A DNA stretch of 59,271 bases from Clostridia bacterium (GTDB lineage Bacteria; UBA6262; WVXT01). Position numbers and translations under genes: made by a program. How positions within the stretch are numbered: position 1 is the stretch's first letter; each line of letters opens with the position of its first letter. The DNA is taken from assembly GCA_009619095.1 (NCBI GenBank), contig WJOT01000080.1:1-59271 (forward strand), in the 5' to 3' direction. This document shows, one piece after another, positions 1,053 through 57,679 of the stretch. The notes beneath the pieces were generated by a model, which ran no database searches, had not been told where the DNA came from, and saw only the letters and a list, made by a program, of their open reading frames with translations.

Positions 1053-1185
1053 GCATCCCGATTTTCAATCGGGAAATCTGTGCCTGCAATCGTTTCTTGG
1101 AGTGTCAAGCGAAAGCTTGACGAGGTATCCCGACTCGTCGGGACGTTTTACACTCCGGGGATTTATAGCACGGTTTCCGCCGTGC
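1053..1185. repeat. Cluster of four hairpin-repeat modules in the recG-coaD spacer
   Basis: 1053-1089 is a 37-nt module, gcatcccgattttcaatcgggaaatctgtgcctgcaa, that recurs at 56767 and 56863. 1098-1121 is identical to 54178-54201. The closing helix ggagtgt/acactcc spans 1099-1155. A further hairpin, gcacgg/ccgtgc, lies at 1168-1185. Confidence 0.85.
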
Positions 1186-1209
1186 CAAACATAAAAAAGG
1201 AGTAAAGAA

Positions 1210-1701
1210 ATGAAAAAGAAGGGAATTGCTGTTTATCCAGGGAGTTTTGATCCGGTTACCAATGGACACATCGACGTAATAAAAAGGGCAATTCGGTTAT
1301 TTGACCGGGTAATAGTAGCAGTGATTGAAAATCCCACTAAGAAGACACTATTTTCAGTGGATGAACGAATGGAGATGCTGAGAGCTGTAACCAGAGGACT
1401 CTCCGGAGTGGTGGTCTCCCATTTCGATAGGTTATTAGTCGACTACATGAAGAAGAAGAAAGCAAGCATTATCATCAGGGGACTACGGGCAGTGTCTGAC
1501 TTTGAATACGAGTTTCAAATGGCATTAACCAACCGCAAGTTAGCACCAGACATAGAAACAGTGTTCCTTATGCCGGCAGAGGCGTATACTTATTTGAGTT
1601 CAAGTATAGTCAAAGAAGTAGTTAGACTGAATGGCAGTGTAAAGGGATTCGTTCCTCGACAAATTGAGGCACGCTTGATAAGAAAGCTGTTGACAAAGTG
1701 A
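1210..1701 (+). CDS. coaD: Phosphopantetheine adenylyltransferase
   Basis: 163 aa with the GSFDPVTNGHIDVI nucleotidyltransferase motif. AAGGAG lies upstream of the ATG. Confidence 0.93.
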   Translation: MKKKGIAVYPGSFDPVTNGHIDVIKRAIRLFDRVIVAVIENPTKKTLFSVDERMEMLRAVTRGLSGVVVSHFDRLLVDYMKKKKASIIIRGLRAVSDFEYEFQMALTNRKLAPDIETVFLMPAEAYTYLSSSIVKEVVRLNGSVKGFVPRQIEARLIRKLLTK

Positions 1702-1718
1702 AAACGCCGTGGTATACT
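1690..1718 (+). promoter_or_regulatory. Putative sigma70 promoter for pilB, embedded in the coaD 3' end
   Basis: TTGACA (1690-1695), a 17-nt spacer, then TGgTATACT (extended -10, 1710-1718). This lies 57 nt upstream of the pilB ATG. Confidence 0.55.
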
Positions 1719-1774
1719 AAAAATTGGTCAGTTTACTTTAACTTTTTTTGAATTAGAGAGGATTTACGAGAGTT

Positions 1775-3523
1775 ATGGCTAAGGGTCCGGCAATAAAAAG
1801 GAAATTGGGTGACTTATTAGTAGAAGTAGGGATAATTACCGCCGAACAATTGCAAGAAGCTTTAGAGGAAGGAAAAATCAGGGGAGGCAGGCTGGGCGAG
1901 ACTCTCATGGGATTGGGCTATATTACTGAGGATGTTTTATTAGCTTTCCTGGGTAAACAGTGCGGTGTATCTTACGTTAGCCTATCCGAATATGGAGAGA
2001 TTGACGATGAAGTCATTAAGAGTGTTCCCGAGAGCATTGCCAGGCATCAGACCCTAATTCCCATTGCCCTGGAGGGGAAAACCCTCATCATAGCTATGAG
2101 TGACCCCTTAAATGTTTTTGCCATTGACGATCTGAGACTAATGACCGGGAGAGAAATTAGCGTAGTGATTGCATCAGAAACTGAGATTAAGAATGCTATT
2201 GAGAAGTATTATGGAGCTAAAAGCTCTATGGAAGATATCGTGAAAGAGATGGAACTCTCAGTAAAGGATGAAGGAAATGTAGAGGTAGTGAAAAAGAGTG
2301 ATACCGGGGGAGAAGATATAATTGCTCTGGAGGCAGCTGGAGAAGAGGCGCCAATAATTAAGATTGTTAATCTTCTTTTGGCTGGAGCTGTCAAATCAGG
2401 AGCTTCGGACGTCCATATCGAACCTTATGAGAAGACTCTCAGGGTGCGTTATCGAATCGATGGGGTGTTACATGAAGTCTCTTCCCCGCCTAAAAAATTG
2501 CAGAATGCAGTTGTTTCCCGGTTAAAGATTATGGCTTCACTGGACATTGCTGAACGTCGCTTGCCCCAGGATGGTAGAATTAAGATTAGAGTGGTAAATA
2601 AAGAAATTGACCTGAGGGTTTCTGTTCTACCTACTTCCTTTGGGGAGAAAGTGGTTATGCGTATTCTGGATGCTTCTTCTTTGTGTCTCGATTTGACCAA
2701 GCTGGGATTTGAACCAGATGCTCTTTCCGTTTATAAGAAAAATATCGAAGTGCCTTATGGAATCATCCTGGTTACAGGACCAACTGGTTCTGGTAAATCT
2801 ACCACTCTCTATTCTACTCTAAGCACTCTTAATTATCCTGACCGTAACATCATTACTATAGAAGACCCTGTTGAATATGTCCTGCAAGGTATCAACCAGG
2901 TACAGGCAAAAGCAGACATTGGTTTAACTTTTGCTGCAGGCTTGAGGTCATTTTTGCGTCAGGACCCGGATATAATTATGGTTGGTGAAATCAGAGATAC
3001 TGAGACTGCTGAGATTGCTATTAATGCCGCACTAACAGGACACTTAGTATTTTCAACTCTGCACACCAATGATGCTCCAGGTGCTATGACCCGTTTGAAT
3101 AATATGGGTATTGAACCATTCCTGACCACTTCCACAGTAATTATGGTTGTTGCTCAAAGATTAATTAGAGTAATCTGTAAACATTGTAAAGAGCTCTATG
3201 AGGTCCCCACCGATTTCCTTTCCAGTATTGGAGTTAAAGAGGAAGAGATAAAAAGTAAAAAGAAAGTGACGCTCTATCGAGGCAAGGGATGCGATAACTG
3301 CAGTAACACTGGTTATCGGGGACGGATAGCGTGCTTTGAGGTCATGGAAGTAACTGATGATGTAAAGGAACTTATCTTAAACAGGGAATCGACGCATTTA
3401 ATCAAGTCAAAAGCGAGAGAGAGTGGGATGATAACTTTGCGAGAGGGTGCCATCAGGAAACTTTTGACAGGCGTAACTACAGTTGAAGAGGTAATGAGGG
3501 TTACCTTTGCTGATGTGGAATAA
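1775..3523 (+). CDS. pilB: Type IV pilus assembly ATPase PilB (GspE family) with an N-terminal MshEN-type domain
   Basis: 582 aa. Walker A GPTGSGKST and the tetracysteine CKHC...CDNC are present. Two 24-residue RLGxxLxxxGxIxxxxLxxxLxxQ-like motifs sit at the N-terminus. Confidence 0.92.
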   Translation: MAKGPAIKRKLGDLLVEVGIITAEQLQEALEEGKIRGGRLGETLMGLGYITEDVLLAFLGKQCGVSYVSLSEYGEIDDEVIKSVPESIARHQTLIPIALEGKTLIIAMSDPLNVFAIDDLRLMTGREISVVIASETEIKNAIEKYYGAKSSMEDIVKEMELSVKDEGNVEVVKKSDTGGEDIIALEAAGEEAPIIKIVNLLLAGAVKSGASDVHIEPYEKTLRVRYRIDGVLHEVSSPPKKLQNAVVSRLKIMASLDIAERRLPQDGRIKIRVVNKEIDLRVSVLPTSFGEKVVMRILDASSLCLDLTKLGFEPDALSVYKKNIEVPYGIILVTGPTGSGKSTTLYSTLSTLNYPDRNIITIEDPVEYVLQGINQVQAKADIGLTFAAGLRSFLRQDPDIIMVGEIRDTETAEIAINAALTGHLVFSTLHTNDAPGAMTRLNNMGIEPFLTTSTVIMVVAQRLIRVICKHCKELYEVPTDFLSSIGVKEEEIKSKKKVTLYRGKGCDNCSNTGYRGRIACFEVMEVTDDVKELILNRESTHLIKSKARESGMITLREGAIRKLLTGVTTVEEVMRVTFADVE

Positions 3524-3526
3524 CAC

Positions 3527-3606
3527 GGCACTGTAAACAGTGCCCAACCAAGTTAGGTCGGTCGCCTTTTCCCGATCCCGTCCCGGTATCGGGACGGGGC
3601 AGGGTG
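3527..3606. repeat. Hairpin repeat pair in the pilB-pilT spacer
   Basis: ggcactgtaaacagtgcc (3527-3544) is a perfect hairpin. 3556-3606, ggtcggtcgcc...cccgtcccggtatcgggacggggcagggtg, also occurs at 6141-6191 and inverted at 38577-38632. Confidence 0.85.
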
Positions 3607-3624
3607 CCGATAAAGGAGTAATTA

Positions 3625-4725
3625 ATGGTATCTATTGATGAATTACTTCAATTAATGATGGAGAAGGGAGCATCTGATTTACACTTAACAGTAGATGTTC
3701 CACCTACTTTGAGGATTGACGGAGAACTTGTCCCCACAGAATATGAGAAGCTTCAGGAAGACCAATGTCAAAGATTAGTCTATAGCCTCCTAACCGATAA
3801 ACAGAAAGAGAGATTTGAATCTACAAACGAGCTTGACTTGTCCTTTGGAATCAAAAACGTAGGACGTGTTCGAATGAACGTGTTCAGGCAACGAGGGGTA
3901 GTGGCAGCATCTCTGAGAGCAATACCCAACTATTTTATGACTTTCGAGGAACTGGGACTGCCGTCAGCAGTTTTTGATGTGGTTAAATTGCCTGTCGGCC
4001 TGGTGTTAGTAACCGGTCCCACTGGCTGTGGTAAGACGACAACCCTTGCGTCAATGATAAATTACATTAATGAGCATCGCAGTGGACACATTGTTACAGT
4101 TGAGGACCCCATCGAGTACGTTCATCCCCACAAGAATTGTATAGTTAGCCAGAGAGAGATAGGTAGTGATACTTCCTCCTTTGGCCTGGCGCTAAAGCAT
4201 GTATTTCGTCAAGACCCAAATTTCATCCTGGTCGGCGAAATGCGCGACCTGGAAACTATCGCTTCTACGCTAACAATCGCTGAGACAGGCCATCTGGTAT
4301 TTGCCACTCTGCACACAACAGATGCCACCCAATCAATTAATAGAATCATAGATGTTTTTCCCCCATACCAGCAACCGCAAATTCGTTCTCAGTTATCGTT
4401 TGTCTTGCAAGCGGTTTTCTGTCAGAGATTACTTCCCAGGGCAAGTGGCAAAGGGAGATGTCTGGCAGTGGAAGTTTTAAGGGTTACTCCGGGTATCAGG
4501 AATATGATCAGGGAAGAGAAGACGGAGCAGATTCCTTCAGCTATGCAGGCAGGAGGAAAATTTGGAATGCAGACAATGAACTGGAGCCTCTATGACCTTT
4601 ACACGCGTAGACAAATTACTTATGCCCAGGCATTGGCAGAGAGCCCGGATATGGAGGATTTAAAGAGAATCTGCAAGAAGGAAGAGGGTGTAGTGGCGGG
4701 GATGAAAAATAAAGGGTTGAGGTGA
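3625..4725 (+). CDS. pilT: Type IV pilus retraction ATPase PilT
   Basis: 366 aa. Walker A GPTGCGKTT and the PilT-type GIRNMIREEK motif are present. Confidence 0.92.
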   Translation: MVSIDELLQLMMEKGASDLHLTVDVPPTLRIDGELVPTEYEKLQEDQCQRLVYSLLTDKQKERFESTNELDLSFGIKNVGRVRMNVFRQRGVVAASLRAIPNYFMTFEELGLPSAVFDVVKLPVGLVLVTGPTGCGKTTTLASMINYINEHRSGHIVTVEDPIEYVHPHKNCIVSQREIGSDTSSFGLALKHVFRQDPNFILVGEMRDLETIASTLTIAETGHLVFATLHTTDATQSINRIIDVFPPYQQPQIRSQLSFVLQAVFCQRLLPRASGKGRCLAVEVLRVTPGIRNMIREEKTEQIPSAMQAGGKFGMQTMNWSLYDLYTRRQITYAQALAESPDMEDLKRICKKEEGVVAGMKNKGLR

Positions 4726-4732
4726 GTAAGAA

Positions 4733-5956
4733 ATGGCACTATTCGGTTATAAAGTCAGGAGCCCACAGGGAAATATTTTGACCGGAACAATAGAAGCGAG
4801 AGAACAAAGGATGGTTATCGATCGCCTCAGACACCAGAGGTTTATCGTTTTGGAAATCGGAGAAATTAAGAAGAGTGCTTCCAAAGACCTTCTGGATAGT
4901 ATAAACTTCTTGAAAAAAAGAGTAAAACAAAAAGACCTCGTTCTATTTAGCCGGCAGCTATCTACACTGATTGGAGCTGGTGTGCCCATAGTTCAGGGTT
5001 TAACAATCCTTGTGGAACAGATAGAAAATCCGGCTTTTAAAAAAGTTATCACCAGTGTGCGGGAGGACATTGAATCAGGAACATCGATTACTGAAGCTCT
5101 CAGCCGGCACCCTACAGTGTTCAGTGAGTTGTATGTGAATATGGTAAAGGCTGGAGAACTTGGTGGTATCTTGGATATTATTCTGGAGAGGCTCTCAGCC
5201 TACCAGGAATCTGCCGCTGCATTGCGAGGTAAGATTAGGGCAGCAATGATTTATCCGGCAGTGATTGCTCTTGTTGCCGGCGGCGTTACTACATTCTTGA
5301 TGGTAGTGGTTGTTCCTATGTTTGTCAAAATATTTCAACAGGTTGGTGCTGAGTTGCCACTTCCTACCCAGATACTGCTTATGTTAAGTAATTTTCTCAA
5401 ACGTTATATTATCTTTTTAATCATTGGTCTTATTGCTTTTGTTGTGGGTCTAAGACAATACTATAAAACAGAGGCAGGGAGTATGTATATAGATACGTTG
5501 TTGCTCAGGCTTCCCCTTTTCGGTTCACTGTTAAGAAAGGTAGCTGTAGCTAAGTTTACCAGGACTTTCGGGACGCTGGTTAAGAGTGGCGTGCCCATAC
5601 TTCAGGCCCTGGAGACTGTGGCCAAGACTTCAGGAAATAGAGTTGTTGAAAAGGCTGTTCTGGCAGCGAAGGATGCTATTCGGGAAGGAGAGAGAATATC
5701 CGACCCCTTAAAAGCAAGCGGTGTCTTTCCGCCAATGGTAACCCAGATGATTTCAGTGGGCGAGGAGACAGGGAACCTGGATGCAATGTTATCGAAGATT
5801 GCCGAGTTTTATGAGCAGGAAGTGGATGCTGCTGTTTCCGGTCTAACTTCCTTGATTGAGCCAGTAGTTGTTGTGTTTATGGGTGTTATCATTGGCGCTA
5901 TTGCCGTTGCTATGTATATGCCTATGTTCCAGATGGGTGCGATAGTTGGTAGGTAA
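4733..5956 (+). CDS. pilC: Type IV pilus platform protein PilC (GspF family)
   Basis: 407 aa with duplicated T2SSF-type halves, each followed by TM segments. It sits immediately after pilT. Confidence 0.9.
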   Translation: MALFGYKVRSPQGNILTGTIEAREQRMVIDRLRHQRFIVLEIGEIKKSASKDLLDSINFLKKRVKQKDLVLFSRQLSTLIGAGVPIVQGLTILVEQIENPAFKKVITSVREDIESGTSITEALSRHPTVFSELYVNMVKAGELGGILDIILERLSAYQESAAALRGKIRAAMIYPAVIALVAGGVTTFLMVVVVPMFVKIFQQVGAELPLPTQILLMLSNFLKRYIIFLIIGLIAFVVGLRQYYKTEAGSMYIDTLLLRLPLFGSLLRKVAVAKFTRTFGTLVKSGVPILQALETVAKTSGNRVVEKAVLAAKDAIREGERISDPLKASGVFPPMVTQMISVGEETGNLDAMLSKIAEFYEQEVDAAVSGLTSLIEPVVVVFMGVIIGAIAVAMYMPMFQMGAIVGR

Positions 5957-5982
5957 AACAGTTCATATACAAGGGAAAGGTC

Positions 5983-6005
5983 TGGACTCCTCCCGAAAGG
6001 GAGGG
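5983..6005 (+). repeat. GAAA-tetraloop hairpin module (family F) after pilC; possible weak terminator
   Basis: tggactcctcccgaaagggaggg followed by tttaaaag. Related copies occur at 16033, 19436 and 54154. Confidence 0.6.
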
Positions 6006-6060
6006 TTTAAAAGTCTAAAAACCTAAGAGATTAAGAGACTAAAAGTTTTTTACAAACTGG

Positions 6061-6089
6061 TTGACAGATGGGGAAAATTGTGGTAACAT
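6061..6089 (+). promoter_or_regulatory. Putative sigma70 promoter of the pilin gene
   Basis: TTGACA (6061-6066), a 17-nt spacer, then TGgTAACAT (6081-6089). This would give a leader of about 120 nt before the GTG at 6212. Confidence 0.55.
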
Positions 6090-6106
6090 TATGTATTAGC
6101 GAATAA

Positions 6107-6191
6107 GGCACTCTAAAGAGTGCCCCCGATACTTATCGGGGTCGCCCTTTCCCGATCCCGTCCCGGTATCGGGACGGGGCAGAGTGACGAA
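6107..6191. repeat. Three consecutive hairpin-repeat modules inside the pilin 5' leader
   Basis: ggcactctaaagagtgcc (6107-6124), ccccgatacttatcgggg (6124-6141), and gtcgccctttcccgatcccgtcccggtatcgggacggggcagagtgacgaa (6141-6191). Confidence 0.85.
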
Positions 6192-6211
6192 AAAAAAGGA
6201 GGTGATAAAGA

Positions 6212-6634
6212 GTGTTGAGATTTCATAGGAAGAGCAAAGGTTTTACCTTGATTGAGTTGATGATTGTGGTGGCAATTATTGGTATCCTGGCAGCAATCGC
6301 CATCCCCAGATTTGCTAACCTGATTGACAGAGCCAGGGAGGCGAGGACCCAGGGTAACCTTGGTGCTCTCAGGTCAGCAGCGGCTATTCATTACGGTGCT
6401 ACTGATGGGACATGGCCAACTGCATTACTTGCCAGCTTGACTCCAACTTACATAGACGTCATTCCCGACGTAGTGCTTCCTGCTGCCATGGGCCATGCGG
6501 AGGCGAATACGGTGGTAGCTCTTGCTGGCGATGATGGGTTGTGGTTCTATGATGTTGCTGCTGCTATTGGAGGAGTGATCAACGTTAATTGCAACCACGC
6601 CGATTCCGGAGGAGACATAGTCAATACCTGGTAA
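6212..6634 (+). CDS. pilA: Type IV pilin (major pilin candidate)
   Basis: GTG start 10 nt after AAGGAGG. Class III signal MLRFHRKSKG/FTLIELMIVVAIIGILAAIAIP. 140 aa with an Ala/Thr/Gly-rich C-terminal half. Confidence 0.85.
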   Translation: MLRFHRKSKGFTLIELMIVVAIIGILAAIAIPRFANLIDRAREARTQGNLGALRSAAAIHYGATDGTWPTALLASLTPTYIDVIPDVVLPAAMGHAEANTVVALAGDDGLWFYDVAAAIGGVINVNCNHADSGGDIVNTW

Positions 6635-8243: not shown

Positions 8244-8258
8244 TAACGGGTAGTGATT

Positions 8259-8366
8259 GGTCGGGCACCGTTTACGGTGCCATCTGGCCGGGCGCTTTTC
8301 AGAGTGCCATCTGGTCGGGCGCTCTTCAGAGTGCCAATTTTTCGTCACCCTAAAGGGTGACCGACC
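8259..8366 (+). repeat. 3 x 27-bp tandem array of the GGTCGGGC..GAGTGCC hairpin module plus a terminal gtcaccc/gggtgac hairpin
   Basis: Units start at 8259, 8286 and 8313 (23-nt core plus an atct linker). ttcgtcaccctaaagggtgaccgacc follows at 8341-8366. Confidence 0.9.
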
Positions 8367-8379
8367 TGAAGAGAAAAAA

Positions 8380-9069: not shown

Positions 9070-9078
9070 AAATCTTGT

Positions 9079-9106
9079 CCCGTTTAGAGATAAATCTCTA
9101 ACGGGG
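9079..9106 (+). repeat. Hairpin after the TPR gene
   Basis: cccgtttagaga-taaa-tctctaacgggg, with one bulged T. No T-tract follows. Confidence 0.5.
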
Positions 9107-9188
9107 TAATGGGTGAAGGAGCTCCGAGGTTTTATTTTTCTATTTTATCATTTTCATTTTAGGTCTGGGATTTGGCAGTTTTGCTAAT

Positions 9189-9975: not shown

Positions 9976-10072
9976 GGAGTAGCAGACCTTGGTCTGCGTT
10001 TTGGAGTGTCAAACGAGTAGGGGTTCGATTTATCGAACCCATCTAGGCGGGCTCAATAAATTGAGCCCCTAC
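9976..10072. repeat. Hairpin-repeat cluster in the pilD-pilM spacer
   Basis: ggagtag followed by gcagaccttggtctgc. ttggagtgtcaaacgag follows. gggttcgatttatcgaaccc is at 10021-10040 and gggctcaataaattgagccc at 10049-10068. Confidence 0.8.
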
Positions 10073-11247: not shown

Positions 11248-11336
11248 GACAGAGCGATAGCTCTGTCTCAATGTAGGTAGTGTAGGGGTTTATCCCCGCC
11301 CCGATAAATCGGGGCGCCCATAAAGGGCTACACTAC
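11248..11336. repeat. Hairpin plus a 60-nt cloverleaf-like compound repeat
   Basis: gacagagc-gata-gctctgtc at 11248-11267. The 9-bp closing helix gtagtgtag/ctacactac (11277-11336) encloses three abutting hairpins. Confidence 0.85.
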
Positions 11337-45757: not shown

Positions 45758-45763
45758 ATAAAG

Positions 45764-46722: not shown

Positions 46723-46821
46723 TGCAGAGCGAAGCTCTGCATGTAGGGGTGGCACTCAGTGGCCACCCGAATGCAGGGACGGCATGCCGAAAAATCGGCA
46801 TAAACTGCGTCCGTCCCCTAC
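46723..46821. repeat. Compound hairpin repeats in the leuD-dehydrogenase spacer
   Basis: tgcagagc-gaa-gctctgca at 46723-41. The closing helix gtagggg/cccctac (46743-46821) encloses the ggtggc...gccacc and atgccga-aaaa-tcggcat hairpins. Confidence 0.8.
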
Positions 46822-46872
46822 GGAGAAGCAAATCTTGTGCTTTGCTGCTACAACAGATAAAAGGGGGCGATT

Positions 46873-47931: not shown

Positions 47932-47989
47932 GACTGTGGAAGAAGTTTCCCATCTCTAACCCAGGACAGGCTCGGCGAAAAATCTCAAG

Positions 47990-48448: not shown

Positions 48449-48464
48449 GCCAGACACATAAGCT

Positions 48465-48518
48465 GGTCGGTCACCCTTCAGGGTGACGAAAAAAAGGCAC
48501 TCTAAAGAGCGCCCGACC
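48465..48518 (-). repeat. Short form of the GGTCGG-terminated composite repeat, inverted orientation
   Basis: ggtcggtcacccttcagggtgacgaa, aaaaa, then ggcactctaaagagcgcccgacc. This is the reverse complement of the 8313-8366 architecture. Confidence 0.85.
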
Positions 48519-48533
48519 AGCGAGATTACCCAA

Positions 48534-49379: not shown

Positions 49380-50788
49380 AAATTACTCCTAAAAAAGTAG
49401 AAATGCCACGTCAAGAGCCCAAAATCAGGGTGACGAATTTTAATGAGGTGGCTTTGGGCTATACAAAAGAGCAGGCACAACAGGAGGCCAGAAGGTGTCT
49501 CCAGTGTAAGAAGGCTCCCTGTATTAAGGCCTGTCCAGTGGAAATTGACATCCCTGGTTTTATTGCTAAGATTGTCAAAAAGGATTACCGGGGAGCCATC
49601 CACAAGATTAAGGAGGCTAACCTCTTGCCAGCTATGTGTGGGAGAGTATGTCCCCAGGAGGGGCTTTGCGAAAAAGCCTGTATTCTAAGTAAAAAGTACG
49701 AGCCTGTCGCCATTGGACGACTGGAACGCTTTGTTGCTGATTGGGAAATCCAGAAGGGCAGTCCAGAAAGCTCATCACTTCCTTCTTCTACTGGAAAACG
49801 CATGGCAGTCATTGGCTCTGGTCCTGGCAGCTTATCCTGTGCCGGCGATTTAATCAGGTTGGGACATAGTGTGACCATTTTCGAAGCATTGCATAAACCA
49901 GGAGGCGTTCTGGTCTACGGGATTCCAGAATTTCGCTTACCCAAAGCTATTGTGGGAAGAGAAATAGAGTACATTCGCTCCCTGGGGGTGGAAGTAAAAA
50001 CTGGCTATGTGATTGGCAAGATTTATACTCTCGATGAACTTTTCTCCCAGGGTTATGATGCTATTTTCATTGGAATTGGGGCTGGTTTGCCCAAGTTTAT
50101 GGACATTCCCGGAGAAAACCTCAATGGGGTCTATTCAGCCAACGAATTTTTAACCAGAACCAACATGATGAAGGCATACTTATTTCCCCAGTACGATACT
50201 CCCGTAAAAATTGGGAAAAGGGTTGCAGTAATAGGAGGGGGAAACGTGGCAATGGACGCCTCGCGGGTAGCCTTAAGGTTAGGAGCTCAAAAGGTTTACA
50301 ATATTTACCGCCGTTCCCCACAGGAGATGCCTGCGCGGGCGGAAGAAGTGCAAAATGCCAAAGATGAGGGAGTAGAATTTAAATTTTTGACCAATCCAGT
50401 GCGGATTCTTGGCAATAAGGAGAATTGGGTTACTGGAATTGAATGTATAAGGATGGAACTGGGGGAGCCTGATGAGTCTGGACGCCGCCGGCCAGTACCG
50501 ATTAAGGGTTCTGAATTCACCATAAAGGTTGATATAGTAATAATGGCTATTGGCGCTGGTGCCAACCCTCTGCTTCCTTCTGCTACCCCAGATTTGGAAG
50601 TAAACAAATGGGGCTATATTGTTATAGATGAAACTAGCGGAAAGACCTCAAAAGAGAGTGTCTGGGCTGGAGGGGATATTGTAAGCGGTGCAGCCACAGT
50701 GATTTCCGCTATGGCTTCTGGTAGGAGGAGTGCCAAAGCAATCCATCAATATCTGATGAAAGATTTACAAGCACGTGATTTTTCTTGA
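49376..50788 (+). CDS. nfnB: NfnB / glutamate synthase small-subunit-like NADPH oxidoreductase
   Basis: CLQCKKAPCIKACP, CGRVCPQEGLCEKAC, and AVIGSGPGSLSCAGDL FAD motif. 470 aa. Confidence 0.8.
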   Translation: MKITPKKVEMPRQEPKIRVTNFNEVALGYTKEQAQQEARRCLQCKKAPCIKACPVEIDIPGFIAKIVKKDYRGAIHKIKEANLLPAMCGRVCPQEGLCEKACILSKKYEPVAIGRLERFVADWEIQKGSPESSSLPSSTGKRMAVIGSGPGSLSCAGDLIRLGHSVTIFEALHKPGGVLVYGIPEFRLPKAIVGREIEYIRSLGVEVKTGYVIGKIYTLDELFSQGYDAIFIGIGAGLPKFMDIPGENLNGVYSANEFLTRTNMMKAYLFPQYDTPVKIGKRVAVIGGGNVAMDASRVALRLGAQKVYNIYRRSPQEMPARAEEVQNAKDEGVEFKFLTNPVRILGNKENWVTGIECIRMELGEPDESGRRRPVPIKGSEFTIKVDIVIMAIGAGANPLLPSATPDLEVNKWGYIVIDETSGKTSKESVWAGGDIVSGAATVISAMASGRRSAKAIHQYLMKDLQARDFS

Positions 50789-50813
50789 CAAACCCATTTT
50801 TAACTTGTAATAT
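50785..50813 (+). promoter_or_regulatory. Putative promoter of the rpmF-plsX-fab operon
   Basis: TTGACA (50785-90, overlapping the nfnB stop), a 17-nt spacer, then TAATAT (50808-13). Confidence 0.45.
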
Positions 50814-50858
50814 TAAAAACTATTGTTTAGGATAATTTTAGCATTACTTGTGCAAAAG

Positions 50859-50920
50859 GGTAGTCGCAACCTTCAGGTTGCGTTCTGTAAATTTCGCTCC
50901 GATAAATCGGAGCGGCTACC
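50859..50920. repeat. Two-hairpin compound repeat closed by ggtag/ctacc in the rpmF leader
   Basis: cgcaacc-ttca-ggttgcg at 50865-82. cgctccgataaatcggagcg at 50895-914. Confidence 0.8.
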
Positions 50921-50949
50921 ATTATAGCATTATTGTTTAGGAGTAGCTT

Positions 50950-51165
50950 ATGGCTAATCCCAAGAGAAGACATTCTGTTTCCAGACAAGGTAAACGAAGA
51001 GCCAACTGGAAACTACATATCCCCACTCTATCTATTTGCCCGATGTGCAAGGAATTTAAACTTCCCCATTTTGCTTGCTTCAATTGTGGCTATTATAATG
51101 AAGAAAAGATAATTAAGACAAAAAAAGAGATAGAGGAAAAAAGGAAAAGAAAAGGGAAAAGTTAA
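50950..51165 (+). CDS. rpmF: 50S ribosomal protein L32 (zinc-ribbon type with a Lys-rich C-terminal tail)
   Basis: MANPKRRHSVSRQGKRR and CPMC...CFNC. Confidence 0.9.
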   Translation: MANPKRRHSVSRQGKRRANWKLHIPTLSICPMCKEFKLPHFACFNCGYYNEEKIIKTKKEIEEKRKRKGKS

Positions 51166-51180
51166 CCAGGGGTCTTATTT

Positions 51181-52161
51181 ATGCGAATCGCTGTAGATGC
51201 TATGGGGGGCGACTATGCTCCCGGAGTAGTGGTGGAAGGAGCAGTTCAAGCTGTCAAAAAAACCCCTTACGAAATAATTTTAGTGGGGGATAAAACCCAC
51301 TTAACAGGGGAGATGAAGAACTATCGAAGTTCATCTTTACCCCTTTCCATTTACCACTGTTCGGAGGTTATCGGTATGGATGAGTCACCGGCGATAGCTT
51401 GTCGCCAAAAGAAAGATTCCTCCATCATGGTTGCTACCCGATTAGTCAAAGAGGGCATGGCTGACGCCATGGTTTCTGCAGGAAACTCGGGTGCAGTATT
51501 GGCCTCAGCATTGATGGTTTTGGGGAGATTGCCCAAAGTCGATAGGCCTGCTATTGCTGCATTAATACCTACTCTAAAAGGTGTAGTTGCACTTCTCGAT
51601 GTTGGCGCAAACGTCAACTCTACGGCAAAAGGTTTGCTCCAGTTTGCGGTAATGGGTAACATCTATATGAAGACAATTATGAATAAAGAATCTCCCCGTA
51701 TTGGACTGTTGAGTACCGGGGCGGAAGAAACCAAGGGGAATGAGGTGACTGTAGAAGCCCATCGTCTCTTGCGCCAATCGGGATTGAATTTTGTGGGTAA
51801 TGTAGAAGGCAAAGATATTGTGAAAGGAAAGGCTGATGTTATCGTTTGTGATGGATTTGTAGGCAATATTCTTCTGAAATTTAGTGAAGGTATAGCTGAA
51901 GAATTTATTAGTTTGTTTAGAGATGAAATTCTCAAATATCCTTTCCGAAAAATAGCACTTATATTGTTGAGAGGCGCCTTTAAAGATATCAAGAAGAGAG
52001 TCGATTATACTGAATATGGAGGAGCTCCTCTTTTGGGCGTAGATGGCTGTTCCATTATTTGCCATGGCAGTTCCAACGCTAAGGCAATTTCCAATGCTAT
52101 CCGGGTAGCAGGAGAGTTTGTGGAAAAGAGAATCAATCAACAAATCAAAGAAAGTTTATAG
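51181..52161 (+). CDS. plsX: Phosphate acyltransferase PlsX
   Basis: MRIAVDAMGGDYAP N-terminus. 326 aa. rpmF-plsX-fabH synteny. Confidence 0.92.
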   Translation: MRIAVDAMGGDYAPGVVVEGAVQAVKKTPYEIILVGDKTHLTGEMKNYRSSSLPLSIYHCSEVIGMDESPAIACRQKKDSSIMVATRLVKEGMADAMVSAGNSGAVLASALMVLGRLPKVDRPAIAALIPTLKGVVALLDVGANVNSTAKGLLQFAVMGNIYMKTIMNKESPRIGLLSTGAEETKGNEVTVEAHRLLRQSGLNFVGNVEGKDIVKGKADVIVCDGFVGNILLKFSEGIAEEFISLFRDEILKYPFRKIALILLRGAFKDIKKRVDYTEYGGAPLLGVDGCSIICHGSSNAKAISNAIRVAGEFVEKRINQQIKESL

Positions 52162-52174
52162 GAGTAGGAAAATA

Positions 52175-53152
52175 GTGGGTATTCGCATAGTGGGAACTGG
52201 GTCATATCTGCCAGAGAAAGTCTTAACCAATAAGGATCTTGAGAAAATAGTCGATACATCCGATGAGTGGATTGTAAGTCGTACGGGAATCAGAGAGAGA
52301 AGGATATGTTCCGATAAACAGGCTGCTTCTGACCTGGGGATTAAAGCTGCCCAGAGAGCACTGGAGGATGCTAATGTAAAAGTTGAAGATATCGATTTAC
52401 TTATTGTGGCAACGATTACTCCGGATATGTTCTTCCCTTCAACAGCTTGTATAATACAGACTAAGTTAGGGATAAAAGGTGCTGCTATTTTTGATTTAAA
52501 TGCTGCCTGCGCTGGCTTTATTTATTCTCTTTCTACTGCCCAGCAATTTTTACAGATGGAAACATATAAAACAGCGCTGGTCATTGCCACGGAAACTCTT
52601 TCTAAAATTACTGACTGGGAGGACAGGAATACTTGTGTGCTTCTGGGGGATGGCGCGGGAGCAGCAGTTTTGAAAAAGGAGAAAGGTGATTCAGGGATTC
52701 TCTCTTGTTATTTAGACGCAGATGGTCAGTATGGCGATTTGTTGAATATGCCCGCTGGGGGCTCGAGACTCCCGGCAACTGTAGACACAGTCAAGAACAG
52801 GCTCCATTACCTGAAGATGAAGGGAAATGAGACTTTCAGAATAGGCGTACCGGAAATGGTGAACTCTGTCAAACGAGGATTGGAAGGATGTGGACTTAAG
52901 ATAGAGGACGTAACTCTGTTGATACCACATCAGGCAAATATCAGGATAATTAAAGCAATCGCAAAGAGATTATCTATATCCATAGATAAGGTTTTCGTAA
53001 ATATTGATAAATGCGCAAATACTTCAGCAGCTACTGTGCCTATTGCTCTGGACCAAGCAAATCGCCAGGGCAGAATTAAACAAGGAGATATTATAGAATT
53101 GGTTGCCTTTGGTGCTGGGTTTACCTGGGGTTCCTGTGTGATTAAATGGTAA
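52175..53152 (+). CDS. fabH: 3-oxoacyl-ACP synthase III
   Basis: GTG 52175 follows GGAGTAGGA; the tracked start at 52118 overlaps plsX. Active-site NAACAGF. Confidence 0.9.
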   Translation: MGIRIVGTGSYLPEKVLTNKDLEKIVDTSDEWIVSRTGIRERRICSDKQAASDLGIKAAQRALEDANVKVEDIDLLIVATITPDMFFPSTACIIQTKLGIKGAAIFDLNAACAGFIYSLSTAQQFLQMETYKTALVIATETLSKITDWEDRNTCVLLGDGAGAAVLKKEKGDSGILSCYLDADGQYGDLLNMPAGGSRLPATVDTVKNRLHYLKMKGNETFRIGVPEMVNSVKRGLEGCGLKIEDVTLLIPHQANIRIIKAIAKRLSISIDKVFVNIDKCANTSAATVPIALDQANRQGRIKQGDIIELVAFGAGFTWGSCVIKW

Positions 53153-54108
53153 AAGTTGCTTTCCTCTTTCCAGGTCAGGGCTCACAATACGTAGGTATGG
53201 GAAGGGAACTATACGAAAGGTACGAGCCGGCCCGGAAGATTATTGACCGGGCAAATGATATTTTAGGTTACGACCTCAGAAAAAAAATTTTTTATGGCCC
53301 TGAGGAGGAATTACAACAAACTCTAATTACTCAGCCCGCCGTCTTTACTATAAGTGTTGCTTGTTTGGAAGTTCTCCAGAGACCTGAAAGTTACTCTTCT
53401 AAAGAAATCTTAAGACCCCAGATTGTAGCCGGCCATAGTTTGGGAGAATATACTGCTTTAGTTGCTGCAGGGGTTTTCGATTTTCCCCAAGCCTTATCAG
53501 TAGTTCAAAAAAGAGCTGAGTTTATTCATAAGGCTTCCCAGGAGAAGCCCGGAGCAATGGCAGCCATTATAGGATTGGAAAGAGAGAAATTAGAAGAAGT
53601 TATTGAGGAAGTTAGAGGAGAAGAAGTACTGGAAGCTGTAAATTTCAATTCTCCTCATCAAATAGTTATTGCTGGAGAATTGAAAGCGATTGAGAGGGCT
53701 GTGGAAGGAGCCAAAGCAAAAGGCGCAAAGAGGGCTATTATTCTAAAAGTTAGCGGAGCTTTCCACTCCCAGTTGATGGCTCAAGCGGGGAAGAATCTGG
53801 CCAGAGAATTGGAGAATTATGAGTTGAAAGATCCCGTTATTCCTGTGGTGACAAACTGTAATGCGAAACCGGCAACTTCACGGGAAGAAATCAGAAAAGC
53901 ATTGGTTTCACAAATAGATAATCCTGTATTATGGGAAGATAGTATAAAAGAGATGTTCCAAAGAGGTGTGGAGATTTTTATTGAGGTAGGTCCAGGGAAG
54001 GTGTTAACTGGACTTTTAAGTAGAATAACCAAGGGGTCTTCCGGATTAAACGTGGAAGACGAGAAAAGTCTTCAGGAAACCCTTAAGAAACTGGAAGGAT
54101 TAGATTAA
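53146..54108 (+). CDS. fabD: Malonyl-CoA-ACP transacylase
   Basis: FPGQGSQYVGM and GHSLGEYTA. Confidence 0.92.
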   Translation: MVKVAFLFPGQGSQYVGMGRELYERYEPARKIIDRANDILGYDLRKKIFYGPEEELQQTLITQPAVFTISVACLEVLQRPESYSSKEILRPQIVAGHSLGEYTALVAAGVFDFPQALSVVQKRAEFIHKASQEKPGAMAAIIGLEREKLEEVIEEVRGEEVLEAVNFNSPHQIVIAGELKAIERAVEGAKAKGAKRAIILKVSGAFHSQLMAQAGKNLARELENYELKDPVIPVVTNCNAKPATSREEIRKALVSQIDNPVLWEDSIKEMFQRGVEIFIEVGPGKVLTGLLSRITKGSSGLNVEDEKSLQETLKKLEGLD

Positions 54109-54153
54109 AAGATAGTTTGTTCATTCCAGAGGAATTTCTTAACGTAGAAAGTT

Positions 54154-54260
54154 TTGGAGTCCTCCCGAAAGGGAGGATGGAGTGTCAAGCGAAAGCTTGA
54201 CCCAGTGAAACTCTCGTTTCACACTCCAGAATTTAATATCCTTGCTTTCGCAAGGACTCC
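54154..54260 (+). repeat. About 107-nt multi-hairpin compound element in the fabD-fabG spacer
   Basis: Outer helix ggagtcc/ggactcc. Hairpins tccc-gaaa-ggga, gtcaagc-gaaa-gcttgac, gtgaaac-tctc-gtttcac and ccttgc-tttc-gcaagg. Inner helix tggagtgt/acactcca. Confidence 0.85.
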
Positions 54261-54302
54261 ATATCACAAATTATCTTTTAATGGTGCGGGGGGTGATCGA
54301 TT

Positions 54303-55043
54303 TTGGATTTAAAAGGTAAAGTAGCGATTGTAACTGGAGGGGCGCAGGGGATTGGAAAGACCATTGCTACTCAGTTGGCTCAAGAGGGAGCAAATGTGGT
54401 TATCGCAGATGTTATGGAAGAAGTAGCTAAAGCTACTGCCCGAGAAATTTCCCAAAAAGGAAGTGAAGCTATCTCCATTGGGGTAGATGTCTCTATTCTA
54501 TCTTCGGTGGAAGAAATGGCGAAAAAAACTCTTGACAAATTTGGCAGAATTGATATATTAGTCAACAATGCTGGAATAACTCGAGATGCACTGATAATGC
54601 GCATGAAAGAAGAGGATTGGGACCTGGTTTTGGATATTAATCTCAAGGGCGCATTTAATTGTATTAAGATAGTTTCCCCCGTTATGATGAAGCAAAAGTC
54701 TGGAAAGATTGTTAATATTGCTTCCATTGTGGGGATAATTGGGAACGCTGGTCAAGCTAACTACTCAGCATCTAAAGGAGGGCTGATTGCTTTAACCAAG
54801 ACCTGTGCCAGAGAACTCGCTGGCCGTCGAATAAATGTTAATGCTGTGGCTCCGGGCTTTATTCAAACGAGCATGACTGAACGATTATCTGCACAAGTAA
54901 AAGAGAAATTATCTTCTCAAATTCCTTTTGGTGAGTTAGGGAAGTCCGAAGATGTGGCTAGCGCAGTCCTATTTTTAGTATCTGAGAAAGCCAGTTATAT
55001 TACCGGAGAAGTAATTAAAGTAGATGGTGGCATGGCAATGTAG
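54303..55043 (+). CDS. fabG: 3-oxoacyl-ACP reductase
   Basis: TGGAQGIGK and YSASKGG (YxxxK). TTG start. Confidence 0.9.
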   Translation: MDLKGKVAIVTGGAQGIGKTIATQLAQEGANVVIADVMEEVAKATAREISQKGSEAISIGVDVSILSSVEEMAKKTLDKFGRIDILVNNAGITRDALIMRMKEEDWDLVLDINLKGAFNCIKIVSPVMMKQKSGKIVNIASIVGIIGNAGQANYSASKGGLIALTKTCARELAGRRINVNAVAPGFIQTSMTERLSAQVKEKLSSQIPFGELGKSEDVASAVLFLVSEKASYITGEVIKVDGGMAM

Positions 55044-55111
55044 AGTTTTCAAAACGTGTAACTTTTTAATTGTTTGGTTACACAATTCTTTTGTGGAGGT
55101 GAAAAAACAAA

Positions 55112-55351
55112 ATGGCAGTAGCCGAAAAGGTAAAAGAAATCATTGTTGAACAACTTGGGGTAGATCCGGAAGAGGTGACTATAGAGGCTTCATTTGTTAA
55201 TGATTTGGGAGCCGATTCTTTGGATACTGTAGAACTTGTAATGGCACTGGAAGAAGAATTTAATATCGAAATCCCAGACGAAGAAGCAGAAAAATTAGAT
55301 ACAGTTGGTAAAGCGATCGAGTACATTAATAGACATAAAGCACAAGCCTAA
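55112..55351 (+). CDS. acpP: Acyl carrier protein
   Basis: [11 protein letters not shown] phosphopantetheine site. 79 aa. Confidence 0.95.
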
Positions 55352-55363
55352 ACTAACAAGAAG

Positions 55364-55406
55364 AAAACCGCTACACAGCAGGAATTTTTGGCGTGGTAGC
55401 GGTTTT
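55364..55406 (+). terminator. Rho-independent terminator or attenuator after acpP
   Basis: The A-tract plus ccgctac (55368-74) pairs with gtagcgg (55396-402), followed by tttt. Confidence 0.6.
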
Positions 55407-55448
55407 GTATTTTATTTTTTTTCTTCCGATTAAATTTTTGGAGGGGAA

Positions 55449-56699
55449 ATGGACCGCAGAGTAGTGATTACGGGATACGGAGTCATTTCGCCAATCGGAA
55501 TCGGAGCAGATGATTTCTGGAACTCACTAGTGAGCGGAAAGTCGGGCATAAGTAGAATCTCGACCTTTGATACCTCTCAATTCTCAACCCAGATTGGTGC
55601 TGAAGTAAAGAATTTCCAACCAGAAAAATATATTGATAAAAAGAAGATTAGAAAGATGGATCGTTTTAGTCAACTTGCGTTTGCTGCTGCCAAGATAGCC
55701 ATAGAGGACGCAAAGCTTGACATGAAGAAGGAAGATCCTTTTCGAGCAGGAGTTATCGTGGGTTCTGGCATAGGAGGATTATCTACTGTTGCTGCGGAAC
55801 ATAAGGTATTATTAGAGAAAGGACCTCGTCGGGTAAGTCCTTTTATGATCCCCATGCTAATTACCAATATTGCTGCTGGAGAGATTGCCATTGCTCACAA
55901 CATCCAGGGGCCAAACTATTCATTATCCAGCGCCTGTGCTACCAGTAACCATACGATAGGAGATGCTTTACGCCTCATCCATTATGGGGATGCAGATGTG
56001 ATTATTGCCGGTGGTTCGGAAGCGGCAGTTACTCCCCTGGGCCTTGCTGGCTTCTGTTCAGCCAGAGCTTTGTCTACTCGAAATGACGACCCTGAACACG
56101 CCAGTCGGCCTTTCGACAAGGAGAGAGATGGTTTTGTAATGGGAGAAGGAGCTGGAATTGTAATTTTGGAATTGTTAGAACACGCCCTTTCCCGGGGAGT
56201 TACCATTCGCGCTGAACTGATTGGCTATGGAGCTACAAACGATGCTTACCATATTACTGCTCCCTCTCCTGACGGGCAGAGTGCTGCTCGGGCTATGTCT
56301 AATGCTTTAGCCGATGGCGGTGTAAAACCCGAAGAAGTCGATTACATAAATGCTCACGGCACTTCCACTCCTTTAAATGATAAGGTAGAAACCCTTGCCG
56401 TAAAGAAAGTTTTTGGGGACTATGCCTACAAGATTCCCATTTCATCAAGCAAGTCTATGATCGGGCACCTCCTGGGAGCAGCAGGAGTTGTAGAATTAAT
56501 CGCCACAATTCTTAGCATGGAAAAAGAGATGCTCCCTCCAACGATAAACTATGAATTTCCTGATCCCGAATGTGACCTGGACTATGTCCCCAATAAAGCC
56601 CGCCCTAAGAAAATCAATGTAGCCCTCTCCAACTCTTTAGGTTTTGGTGGCCATAATGCCACCTTGGTAGTAAGAAAATATAAACCAGAAACAGTGTAG
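55449..56699 (+). CDS. fabF: 3-oxoacyl-ACP synthase II
   Basis: SSACATSNH active-site Cys. HGTSTP and GHLLGAAG motifs. Confidence 0.93.
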   Translation: MDRRVVITGYGVISPIGIGADDFWNSLVSGKSGISRISTFDTSQFSTQIGAEVKNFQPEKYIDKKKIRKMDRFSQLAFAAAKIAIEDAKLDMKKEDPFRAGVIVGSGIGGLSTVAAEHKVLLEKGPRRVSPFMIPMLITNIAAGEIAIAHNIQGPNYSLSSACATSNHTIGDALRLIHYGDADVIIAGGSEAAVTPLGLAGFCSARALSTRNDDPEHASRPFDKERDGFVMGEGAGIVILELLEHALSRGVTIRAELIGYGATNDAYHITAPSPDGQSAARAMSNALADGGVKPEEVDYINAHGTSTPLNDKVETLAVKKVFGDYAYKIPISSSKSMIGHLLGAAGVVELIATILSMEKEMLPPTINYEFPDPECDLDYVPNKARPKKINVALSNSLGFGGHNATLVVRKYKPETV

Positions 56700-56736
56700 T
56701 TTGCAGCTACAATTTCGAATTTTAAAGCATTTGTAA

Positions 56737-56899
56737 GTCCCGATTCATCGGGACAAGAATGGTTTTGCATCCCGATTTTCAATCGGGAAATCTGTGCCTA
56801 CAATTGATTATGCTGTCATTGCGAACGGAGTGAAGCAATCTCGTAATTCAGGTTTTAATTTTGCATCCCGATTTTCAATCGGGAAATCTGTGCCTACAA
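56737..56899 (+). repeat. Five repeat modules in the fabF-rnc spacer, including two direct copies of the 37-nt family-A unit
   Basis: gtcccgattcatcgggac at 56737-54. Family A units at 56767-56803 and 56863-56899, identical to each other. gtcattgcgaacggagtgaagcaatctcg at 56815-43. Confidence 0.9.
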
Positions 56900-56920
56900 C
56901 GAAACGGAGGATTCTTTAAT

Positions 56921-57607
56921 ATGAACTCGAAGAATCTTGAACAAAAGTTAAAAATAAATTTTAAAAACAAAGAACTGTTTTGGCAGGCTTTAACGCATAA
57001 ATCTTATGCGCACATGTCCGGTATAAAAGAAGATAATGAACGACTCGAGTTTCTAGGGGACAGTGTGCTGAATTTAGTGATATCTGAGCACCTTTATCAG
57101 CGGTATCCAACATACGACGAAGGGAAGTTAACTAAACTGAAATCGAGCCTGGTAAACAGAAAGTCTCTTCTGCTCTGGGCCAAGAAATTATCCCTGGGCG
57201 ACTATCTTTTAATAAGTGAAGAGGAAGAGAAAGCAGGCGGTCGCCAGAGAGCTTCTCTGTTAAGTAATGCCTTGGAGGCCCTAATCGGTGCGATTTACCA
57301 GGATCAGGATTGGGATAAGGCAAAGAAGTTTATTCTGGGACAGATTTTCACGCTTAAGGGCATAAGGAAGGTAGATTATAAAAGTAGTCTTCAAGAGTTG
57401 ATTCAAAAGAAATATAAGATTTTACCAGAATATAAGGTAAAGACAGAGTGGGGTCCAGCCCACAAGAAATTTTTTGAAATCGAAGTGAAAGTGAAAAGTA
57501 GAATTTTTGGCCGGGGCACGGGGTTGAGCAAAAAAACAGCCGAACAAGAAGCAGCTAAAAAGGCACTAAAGAAGATTAAAGCTAAGAAAAAAACGAAGAC
57601 ACAATAA
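56921..57607 (+). CDS. rnc: Ribonuclease III
   Basis: ATG 56921 follows GGAGG; the tracked start at 56861 reads through a repeat. ERLEFLGDSVL catalytic motif and a C-terminal dsRBD. Confidence 0.92.
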   Translation: MNSKNLEQKLKINFKNKELFWQALTHKSYAHMSGIKEDNERLEFLGDSVLNLVISEHLYQRYPTYDEGKLTKLKSSLVNRKSLLLWAKKLSLGDYLLISEEEEKAGGRQRASLLSNALEALIGAIYQDQDWDKAKKFILGQIFTLKGIRKVDYKSSLQELIQKKYKILPEYKVKTEWGPAHKKFFEIEVKVKSRIFGRGTGLSKKTAEQEAAKKALKKIKAKKKTKTQ

Positions 57608-57679
57608 ACAGTTTTCAAACTGTGGAGTAGCAGAACTTGCTCTATGTTATTATCGTCCCGATTCATCGGGACTACTCCA
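57608..57679 (+). repeat. Hairpin after rnc plus a compound repeat closed by tggagtag/ctactcca
   Basis: acagttt-tc-aaactgt at 57608-23. gtcccgattcatcgggac at 57655-72 is identical to 56737-54. Confidence 0.8.

Follow-up and report, generated by a model that had tools for sequence, protein, structure and literature searches.

Tagged hairpin repeats of an uncultured sediment lineage, very probably a REP/REPIN-RAYT system

The contig WJOT01000080.1 of a Clostridia bacterium (assembly GCA_009619095.1), analyzed over positions 1 to 59,271 and referred to here as the window, carries GC-rich hairpins at ~19 loci, nearly all of them intergenic. These loci very probably represent a system of repetitive extragenic palindromes (REPs), their inverted pairs (REPINs) and tyrosine transposases that are associated with REPs (RAYTs), elements of a kind already known, in an uncultured lineage from sediment. 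REPs are small, non-autonomous mobile hairpins of DNA that have been described mainly from Proteobacteria. The hairpin units share one anatomy, are dispersed among genomes and turn over fast, and two of their classes each flank a RAYT gene of their own. The original prediction, made from the letters of the window, could name no mobilizing factor; a partner RAYT is now named in congeneric genomes (P0010/P0017), with a paralogue (P0248/P0249) in related genomes that share the repeat classes, and the P0010/P0017 RAYT is the likely mobilizing enzyme of the GGAGTCC-type units.

Anatomy of the hairpin units

The window (59 kb, ~40% GC) has all of its long open reading frames (ORFs) on the + strand and a GC skew that is positive from end to end. 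Every exact repeat listed in the original prediction was recovered, namely a 37-mer at 1053, 56767 and 56863 (chance expectation 0), 24-mers at 1098/54178 and 16033/54154, an 18-mer at 56737/57655, and a unit of ~50 nt located on the + strand at 3560 and 6140 and on the - strand at 38577-38632. The predicted number of about 20 mostly intergenic loci, one of them inside a gene, also agrees with our count: 35 of the 52 perfect GC-rich hairpins (stem ≥ 6 bp) fell into intergenic DNA, which makes up ~7% of the window, and one unit (16035-16056) lies in frame within the ORF 14947-16599. Tag-plus-hairpin units numbered 28, compared with 3.4 (maximum 5) in Markov shuffles. Since an independent ENA assembly (L001) reproduces positions 1-6357, four clusters included, at 99.8% identity, the repeats are not assembly artefacts. 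The Rfam scan of the window at gathering thresholds gave 0 matches, and the tRNA scan of the window found nothing.

Read on both strands, a REP unit consists of a short 5' tag at the hairpin foot, followed directly by a stem of 6-9 bp. At least three tag classes coexist, i.e., GGAGT with CC, GT or AG after it, GTAG with G, C or T after it, and (C/T)TGGTCG. The GTAG(N) and GGAGTAG units have the REP tetranucleotide GT[AG]G at the base of their hairpins, while the GGAGTCC, GGAGTGT and TGGTCG classes have another tag at the same position. The 5-mers adjoining 143 perfect hairpins in 269 kb of a related metagenome-assembled genome (MAG) were headed by TGGAG (16), TGTAG (15), GGAGT (10) and GGTCG (10), all of them strongly enriched, as was GTAGC. 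The commonest loops were TAAA, TTCA, GAAA and TTC; thus, of the GAAA and TTCG-like tetraloops that had been proposed, only the former belongs to the commonest ones.

Most units occur as inverted pairs, and the pairs are nested or chained into mosaics that resemble bacterial interspersed mosaic elements (BIMEs). The doublets take the forms GGAGTCCTCCCGAAAGGGAGG ... CCTTGCTTTCGCAAGGACTCC, GGAGTGTCAAGCGAAAGCTTGAC ... GTGAAACTCTCGTTTCACACTCC, GTAG-hairpin ... hairpin-CTAC and CTGGTCG-hairpin ... hairpin-CGACCAG, and were found at 1099-1156, 10017-10072, 48463-48520, 50860-50919, 54156-54260 and 57624-57678, with the same arrangement in locus L016 of a related genome; an alternating array is located at 8257-8370. 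The groups of two to four hairpins that had been described as enclosed by closing helices are doublets with nested units (54156-54260, 11273-11336, 46743-46821) or arrays (8257-8370): the proposed helices consist of the 5' tags that paired units carry in inverted orientation.

The compensatory stem variants that had been predicted were borne out by pair counts. In a covariation scan whose pattern permitted all four pyrimidine/purine combinations at one stem position, the matches listed comprised 102 C-G, 11 T-A, 3 C-A and 1 T-G pairs. Moreover, the number of paired positions in 194 distinct GGAGT-N7-tetraloop-N7 strings was bimodal, and 62 strings with at least 6 of 7 positions paired held more than 50 different stems after the same GGAGT, i.e., the stems covary. 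The tag of the GGAGT units was on the coding strand in 128 cases and on the other strand in 62; this ~2:1 excess on the + strand (coding, lagging-template) fits a strand-specific transposition of single-stranded DNA, although transcription and replication are confounded in it, as all genes run with the GC skew.

Dispersal and turnover among related genomes

A single genome scan with the GGAGTCC unit as the query retrieved this module from at least 103 genomic stretches, so the modules are not limited to the window. Most of the matches listed came from six MAGs related to the window (DAOVHK, CAYOFG, CAZTSA, CAZJWT, CAYFRM, and JBHIBS), of which DAOVHK is 94-99% and CAYOFG 88-90% identical to it, and an identical 21-mer was also among the matches listed for MAGs labelled Scalindua, Deltaproteobacteria, Elusimicrobiota, and Gammaproteobacteria. 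Other modules of the window, including composites of 65-81 nt, recur in the loci that were picked for the GGAGTCC module. A search with FabF gave conflicting labels for the lineage, namely 'Elusimicrobia', 'bacterium' and 'subsurface metagenome', as against 'Clostridia' for the MAGs.

Alignments with syntenic loci break precisely at the hairpin clusters, and neighbouring intergenic sites turn over between genomes that are 82-99% identical in the flanking genes. For instance, the window has a GTAG doublet at 50.84-50.93 kb where both DAOVHK (L024) and CAYOFG (L047) have an empty site; the insertion (~90 nt) is bracketed by an imperfect duplication of ~20 nt of the rpmF ribosome-binding region (TATTGTTTAGGA.., window 50817-50945). 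CAYOFG (L047) shares the doublet at 57.62 kb, which is absent from the 82%-identical contig L194, with no duplication seen, and the one at 48.46 kb is likewise missing from L194, where the two genes abut. At 1.05, 3.5, 38.5, 46.7, and 54.1 kb, the occupants of orthologous gaps have been replaced. This pattern of turnover fits mobile elements and not conserved cis-regulatory RNAs. As a side observation, the native rpmF site includes GGAGTA, which resembles a REP tag.

A second kind of change, the replacement of a hairpin arm, also recurs: a CCCGA..TCGGG or a GTAG-tagged hairpin takes over the loop and one arm of a unit, of which the resident tag and the other arm stay in place (window 1053-1089 and 1125-1156; L029 1878-1950; L049). 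Once formed, the 37-mer composite spread in one piece: three copies are in the window and more in L036, L053, and L102.

Two further observations concern sequences that surround the hairpins in other genomes. In the unrelated JACRCB01 (a MAG labelled 'Deltaproteobacteria', 53% GC), a composite repeat of ~100 nt has the 21-nt GGAGTCC unit as its core, flanked by TTTCGGTGAG..CTCACCGAAA and TTTCGGTGTG..CACACCGAAA hairpins (L040, L045, L074, L086, L092, L101, and L103). Relatives of the window carry AT-rich tandem repeats of the CAAATTT / TTTGGATTT type beside GGTAGTGTAGGGG hairpins (L094 6490-6568; L194 1205-1375 and 8630-8720), none of which were seen in the window.

RAYT genes flanked by the units

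A search with tblastn and a hidden Markov model (HMM) built from 116 RAYTs found no RAYT in the window, as had been predicted, and none in ~580 kb sampled from the six related MAGs (loci within L002-L104). In a Scalindua locus (L100), GGAGTCC units bracket a gene for 175 aa with a match to Pfam Y1_Tnp (PF01797), and its homologues P0008 and P0010 are flanked by GGAGTCC units in the same way. RAYT homologues are numerous, the protein collection giving 141 matches and the JGI metagenomes 454. In an automatic scan, ~55 of 90 RAYT loci had GGAGT/GGAAT-tagged hairpins in their flanks, typically as inverted pairs, and the similarity of the RAYTs follows the tag 7-mer, the nearest neighbour having the same tag in 26 of 35 cases (permutation p 5e-4). 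The unit just upstream of the RAYT start codons holds a likely Shine-Dalgarno sequence in its 3' arm.

The profile of this clade matched the E. coli TnpA_REP (4ER8), its best relative of solved structure, with an E-value of 9e-16 and the TnpA of IS608/ISDra2 with ~1e-3. Both the HUH motif NHYH and the motif YIHHNP are present in P0010, P0008, L100, and L116, and the motifs NHYH, WY and YIHHNP agree with those of RAYT subclass 2.8 (PMC6006769), which the clade resembles.

Synteny links these genes to the lineage of the window. In L105, the locus of RAYT P0010, the flanking genes are 92% identical to those of DAOVHK, the closest relative of the window, and the JGI contig Ga0315314_1000186 (81.7 kb) combines a block syntenic to window 44914-59266 with the RAYT P0017, located ~46 kb downstream of fabF and with GGAGTCC doublets on both sides. 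P0017 (L193 10001-10525) is full length and REPIN-flanked, with QYR in the place of the HYH of the HUH motif, and judging by this replacement it is probably catalytically dead. At the orthologous RAYT locus, JBHIBS has a single clean REPIN instead of the gene, and DAOVHK and CAZTSA have the same doublet with a nested GTAG unit. With P0010 intact, P0017 altered to QYR and the relatives without the gene, the locus is thus seen in an intact, a degenerate and a lost state. The second paralogue, P0248/P0249 (L195, L197), is flanked by GGAGTGT units identical to the units of CAYOFG L016, and its contigs also share the GTAG doublet of the window.

Proposed mechanism and alternative explanations

If it works like E. 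coli TnpA_REP and IS608 (PMC3333891, PMC3479197), the RAYT would bind the folded hairpin together with its 5' tag on single-stranded DNA, probably on the lagging-strand template, and would cleave beside the unit and rejoin the DNA. Units could thereby be copied, moved, nested in one another and exchanged at their tags, which would generate the mosaic. Arm replacement appears to diversify the modules while the resident tag is kept, and it may come about through RAYT-catalyzed strand exchange at the tags. As the elements lie between operon genes or just upstream of promoters, including the strong promoter-like sites at 10083 and 18819, they are probably co-transcribed, and as stable RNA hairpins they may have a secondary effect on mRNA 3'-end protection, ribosome-binding-site occlusion, mRNA stability and translation.

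Several points weigh against a REP/REPIN-RAYT system. The window itself has no RAYT, its closest sampled relative (DAOVHK, L029) lacks the gene where others carry it, and the HUH motif of P0017 is degenerate (QYR), so that the GGAGTCC class may be orphaned in the window's own genome. Among the RAYT loci examined, the GGTCG class and the plain GTAG class were tied to no RAYT. The duplication of ~20 nt at 50.84 kb is not known from IS200/IS605-type transposition, and hairpins nested in a unit take the place of one of its arms rather than simply inserting into it, an outcome unpredicted by the published REP mechanisms, none of which, to our knowledge, describes arm replacement. Finally, RAYT catalysis is here a prediction from the protein sequences.

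The best surviving alternative, which we still consider improbable, is that the hairpins are primarily functional RNAs (operon-internal mRNA stabilizers, processing sites, attenuators or leaders) and that selection for a shared fold accounts for their repetition. GC-rich stable stems inside operons or at operon ends would suit such a role, as would the 2:1 bias of the tag toward the coding strand, the likely Shine-Dalgarno sequence within the 3' arm of the unit upstream of the RAYT starts, and the single-mismatch stems, which on the coding strand have G.T 11 times and A.C 3 times (39 stems, a suggestive but small sample). However, orthologous gaps in 82-99% identical relatives carry other elements or none, the tag is on the non-coding strand in one third of the units so that both orientations occur, one unit is in frame within a gene, and Rfam has 0 matches. 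The orientation bias is also confounded with replication direction, all genes following the GC skew, and the RAYT association accounts for the repetition directly. The hairpins lack T tracts, T-tract terminators were not enriched (21 sites vs. 16.9 +/- 5.1 in shuffles of 1-20 kb), and intrinsic terminators were rejected as a candidate function, with only two + strand REP hairpins weakly qualifying. DNA-uptake sequences were considered too, given that type IV pilus genes are present, and were dropped, as the conserved part is only 5 nt long and the RAYT association explains the repeats.

[quoted passage not shown] The inverted ends of the doublets (GGAGT..ACTCC) and the direct duplication around one recent insertion (50.84 kb) are what such elements would have, but the duplication is imperfect and ~20 nt long, compared with the fixed 2-9 bp of DDE elements, and the REPIN at 57.62 kb has none. 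Partnerless single units are common, the window has no DDE transposase, and Y1 HUH transposases are the sole protein genes found within inverted ends of this kind. An origin as chance hairpins, ordinary terminators or an artefact of assembly, which has only the general abundance of hairpins after genes in its favour, can practically be dismissed given 37-mers with an expectation of 0, 28 tagged units vs. 3.4 in shuffles, an independent assembly at 99.8% identity and modules in at least six other MAGs. Of the options that the original prediction had offered, the mobile REP/BIME system is the one upheld, by doublets, dispersal, polymorphism and RAYT flanking, and neither MITEs nor structured leader RNAs are supported as the primary nature of the hairpins.

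Hairpin loci along the window and their effect on gene calls

Near the left end of the window, a GTAG-class REP on the - strand (1053-1089, the first of the three copies of the 37-mer) has its tag mutated to GCAG and a CCCGAT..ATCGGG hairpin (1056-1074) in place of one REP arm; in the orthologue in L094 the hairpin is intact (GCACAGATT-G-AATCTGTGC+CTAC). The GGAGTGT-type REPIN at 1099-1156 consists of a left unit GGAGTGTCAAGCGAAAGCTTGAC (+) and a right unit ending in ..CGTTTTACACTCC (-), in which the hairpin TCCCGACTCGTCGGGA (1128-1143) substitutes for the 5' arm and the loop. Its doublet is intact in L094, and the GGAGTGT unit type is the one that also flanks the RAYT P0248/P0249. Beside this cluster stands an untagged hairpin GCACGG..CCGTGC (1168-1185), which in L094 is split by a CCCGATTTTCAATCGGG hairpin. 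At 3527-3610 (+), a GGCACTG-TAAA-CAGTGCC hairpin is followed by a long GGTCG-tagged unit (3556-3610) with the nested hairpin CCCGTCCCG..CGGGACGGG, and the orthologous gap in L094 is occupied by wholly different GGAGT units. A lone unit of the GGACTCC type, a GGAGTCC variant, is located at 5984-6004 (+, GGACTCCTCCCGAAAGGGAGG), and three abutting hairpins at 6107-6190 (+), GGCACTC..GAGTGCC, CCCCGAT..ATCGGGG and a long GGTCG-class unit, the last being a copy of 3556-3610 (family D2, 81% over 93 nt).

The BIME-like array at 8257-8370 contains four (C/T)TGGYCG-tagged units (family D3), three direct and one inverted. Three elements make up the locus 9976-10072. A GGAGTAG unit occupies 9976-9997 (+) and is followed by a GGAGTGT unit that is truncated (10003-10016); the third, a GTAG REPIN, runs from GTAG at 10017-10020 to CTAC at 10069-10072 and recurs in L011, L087, and L195; the promoter-like site that comes after them at 10083 has a 12/12 match. 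At 11248-11336, a hairpin GACAGAGC..GCTCTGTC precedes a composite GTAGTGTAGGGG ... CTACACTAC around three small hairpins, and this 71-nt composite is also found in L011 and L032. The intragenic GGAGTCC-type unit (16035-16056, +) is translated (..LESSRKGGN..) in the Wzy_C-TPR linker of its ORF. A GGAGTA-GCTCCGATTCATCGGAGC unit and then a GGTA-GTCGGGCTC..GAGCCCGAC unit at 18724-18792 (+) are followed by the promoter-like site at 18819, and a lone GGAGTCC-type unit with the compensatory stem variant TTCC/GGAA lies at 19436-19456 (+).

The TTGGTCG ... CGACCAG doublet at 38548-38634 pairs a short unit (+) with the long nested unit in inverted orientation (-), and different GGAGT units take its place in the L005 orthologue. 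At 46718-46821, a GTAGC-tagged hairpin (46723-46741) is followed by a GTAGGGG ... CCCCTAC composite with two hairpins; L024, the closest relative, has another set of elements here, and copies of the 81-nt composite are also found in L010 and L087. A CTGGTCG ... CGACCAG doublet occupies 48463-48520, and the GTAG REPIN inside the ~90-nt insertion (50860-50919) reads GTAGT-CGCAACC..GGTTGCG ... CGCTCCGA..TCGGAGCG-GCTAC. In the GGAGTCC-type REPIN GGAGTCCTCCCGAAAGGGAGG ... CCTTGCTTTCGCAAGGACTCC at 54156-54260, the spacer holds a complete GGAGTGT-type REPIN (54179-54227). The hairpin GTCCCGATTCATCGGGAC precedes the second copy of the 37-mer composite (-) at 56737-56803, the third copy lies at 56863-56899 (-), and the GGAGTAG ... 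TACTCC REPIN at 57624-57678 has a decayed left hairpin and GTCCCGATTCATCGGGAC as its right one. Between this right hairpin (57655-57672) and its counterpart in L047 (~7540) there are two compensatory pair changes, GTCCCGA/TCGGGAC vs. GCTCCGA/TCGGAGC, and the loop in L047 is the reverse complement (TTCA vs. TGAA), as if the hairpin had been turned around or swapped for a family member.

False N-terminal ORF extensions had been proposed for six genes, and five starts inside clusters were verified. Three of them are TTG codons at 8257 (in the array 8257-8370), 38548 and 57637, for which the likely true starts are the ATG at 8380 and positions 38680 and 57697, respectively. A GTG at 48483 extends a gene that likely starts at 48534, and for rnc the third copy of the 37-mer supplies a TTG at 56861, the likely true start being 56921.

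Other features of the window

A segment of ~570 bp (45613-46185) contains a gene of the DUF559 family (Vsr-like endonuclease, 45764-46153), with a perfect 9-bp hairpin upstream (45736-45758) and another hairpin at the 3' end of the gene (46127-46147). Neither the closest relative (L024) nor L194 has the segment, so that it resembles a mobile gene of small size. The stretch 19500-38500 has a GC content of 32-38%, encodes polysaccharide biosynthesis (asparagine synthase, a PMT_2 glycosyltransferase, and others) and holds no REP units, which suggests recently acquired DNA. It includes a 40-codon N-terminal remnant of a GDP-mannose 4,6-dehydratase (29121-29240, PF16363, E-value 5e-11) that ends in a stop codon, a truncated fragment that lies behind the asparagine synthase gene, in a gap of 273 nt. 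An interrupted 11-bp hairpin (TCCCGTTTAGAGATAAATCTCTAACGGGG, 9078-9108) after a TPR gene is single-copy, untagged and without copies in the fetched loci, and may be unrelated to the REP families.

Comparison with known systems and implications

Work on REP/REPIN-RAYT systems has been carried out almost wholly in Gammaproteobacteria, and surveys have reported them in ~8 phyla, with no Firmicutes-like or candidate lineages among them. The latter count comes from PMC3733652. The REP/BIME elements of E. coli with TnpA_REP (the RAYT of PDB 4ER8; PMC3333891, PMC3479197) are likewise short imperfect palindromes, rich in GC and with a 5' tag conserved beside the stem, which form mostly extragenic clusters of alternating orientation and flank the RAYT gene. 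In contrast to E. coli, the tag here is GGAGT(NN), with GTAG contained only in the GGAGTAG subtype, there is an additional GGTCG class, the stems are shorter (6-9 bp) and have tetraloops, several classes are nested in one another, the HUH motif is NHYH and not DHLH, and the host is an uncultured anaerobic sediment lineage and not a proteobacterium.

The REPIN-RAYT systems of Pseudomonas (PMC3116915, PMC5581495) share the inverted doublet as the repeated unit, the single-copy RAYT flanked by its own REPINs, the occurrence of several RAYT paralogues, each with its own REP class, and the orphan REPINs left by RAYT loss. They differ in that their RAYTs belong to another subclass and in that REPINs are usually described as lineage-specific and vertically inherited, whereas the 21-nt GGAGTCC unit is near-identical across phylum labels here. 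RAYT subclass 2.8 (Quentin et al. 2018, PMC6006769) has NHYH / W[YH] / YIH[YH]NP, an N-terminus with proline (HPPH), and single-copy, REP-flanked genes, as does the clade described here, by its motifs a putative member of this subclass. The description of that subclass was based on 8 sequences of cyanobacteria, whose REPs are long and of the GT[AG]G type, and notes relatives in unrelated phyla (PMC6006769), whereas here it would have hundreds of members in uncultured phyla (the 141 and 454 matches) with short, GGAGT-tagged hairpins.

The Rickettsia palindromic elements (RPEs; PMC3733652) provide a parallel for a palindromic repeat in frame inside a gene (unit 16035-16056), but they are ~100-150 bp long and CGTC-tagged, and only 1 of the ~19 loci is intragenic here. 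The IS200/IS605 elements (IS608, ISDra2) have a Y1 HUH transposase that recognizes subterminal hairpins on single-stranded DNA, and a replication-coupled orientation bias is expected of them; unlike the units described here they are autonomous and multi-copy, and the similarity of the clade to their TnpA is weak (E-value ~1e-3).

The near-identical 21-nt unit GGAGTCCTCCCGAAAGGGAGG is common to MAGs labelled Planctomycetota (Scalindua), Deltaproteobacteria, Elusimicrobiota and this lineage, with RAYTs that are only 55-60% identical. This suggests either that bacteria living together in sediment exchanged REP-RAYT pairs across phyla or that the constraint between protein and DNA is unusually tight. 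The broader proposal, that the GGAGT REP/RAYT is not a purely vertical passenger and that it diversifies by arm replacement, is put forward tentatively and is in our view rather doubtful.

As the elements give false N-terminal extensions at no fewer than five genes in 59 kb and break assemblies, their recognition betters the gene calls of these MAGs. A dense, multi-class REP population is now documented in an uncultured sediment lineage, and the matching RAYT clade, which resembles the little-known subclass 2.8, occurs widely among uncultured phyla. The series observed at one locus, from an intact through an HUH-degenerate to a lost RAYT with the REPIN left behind, is useful for understanding how REPINs survive beyond their transposase.

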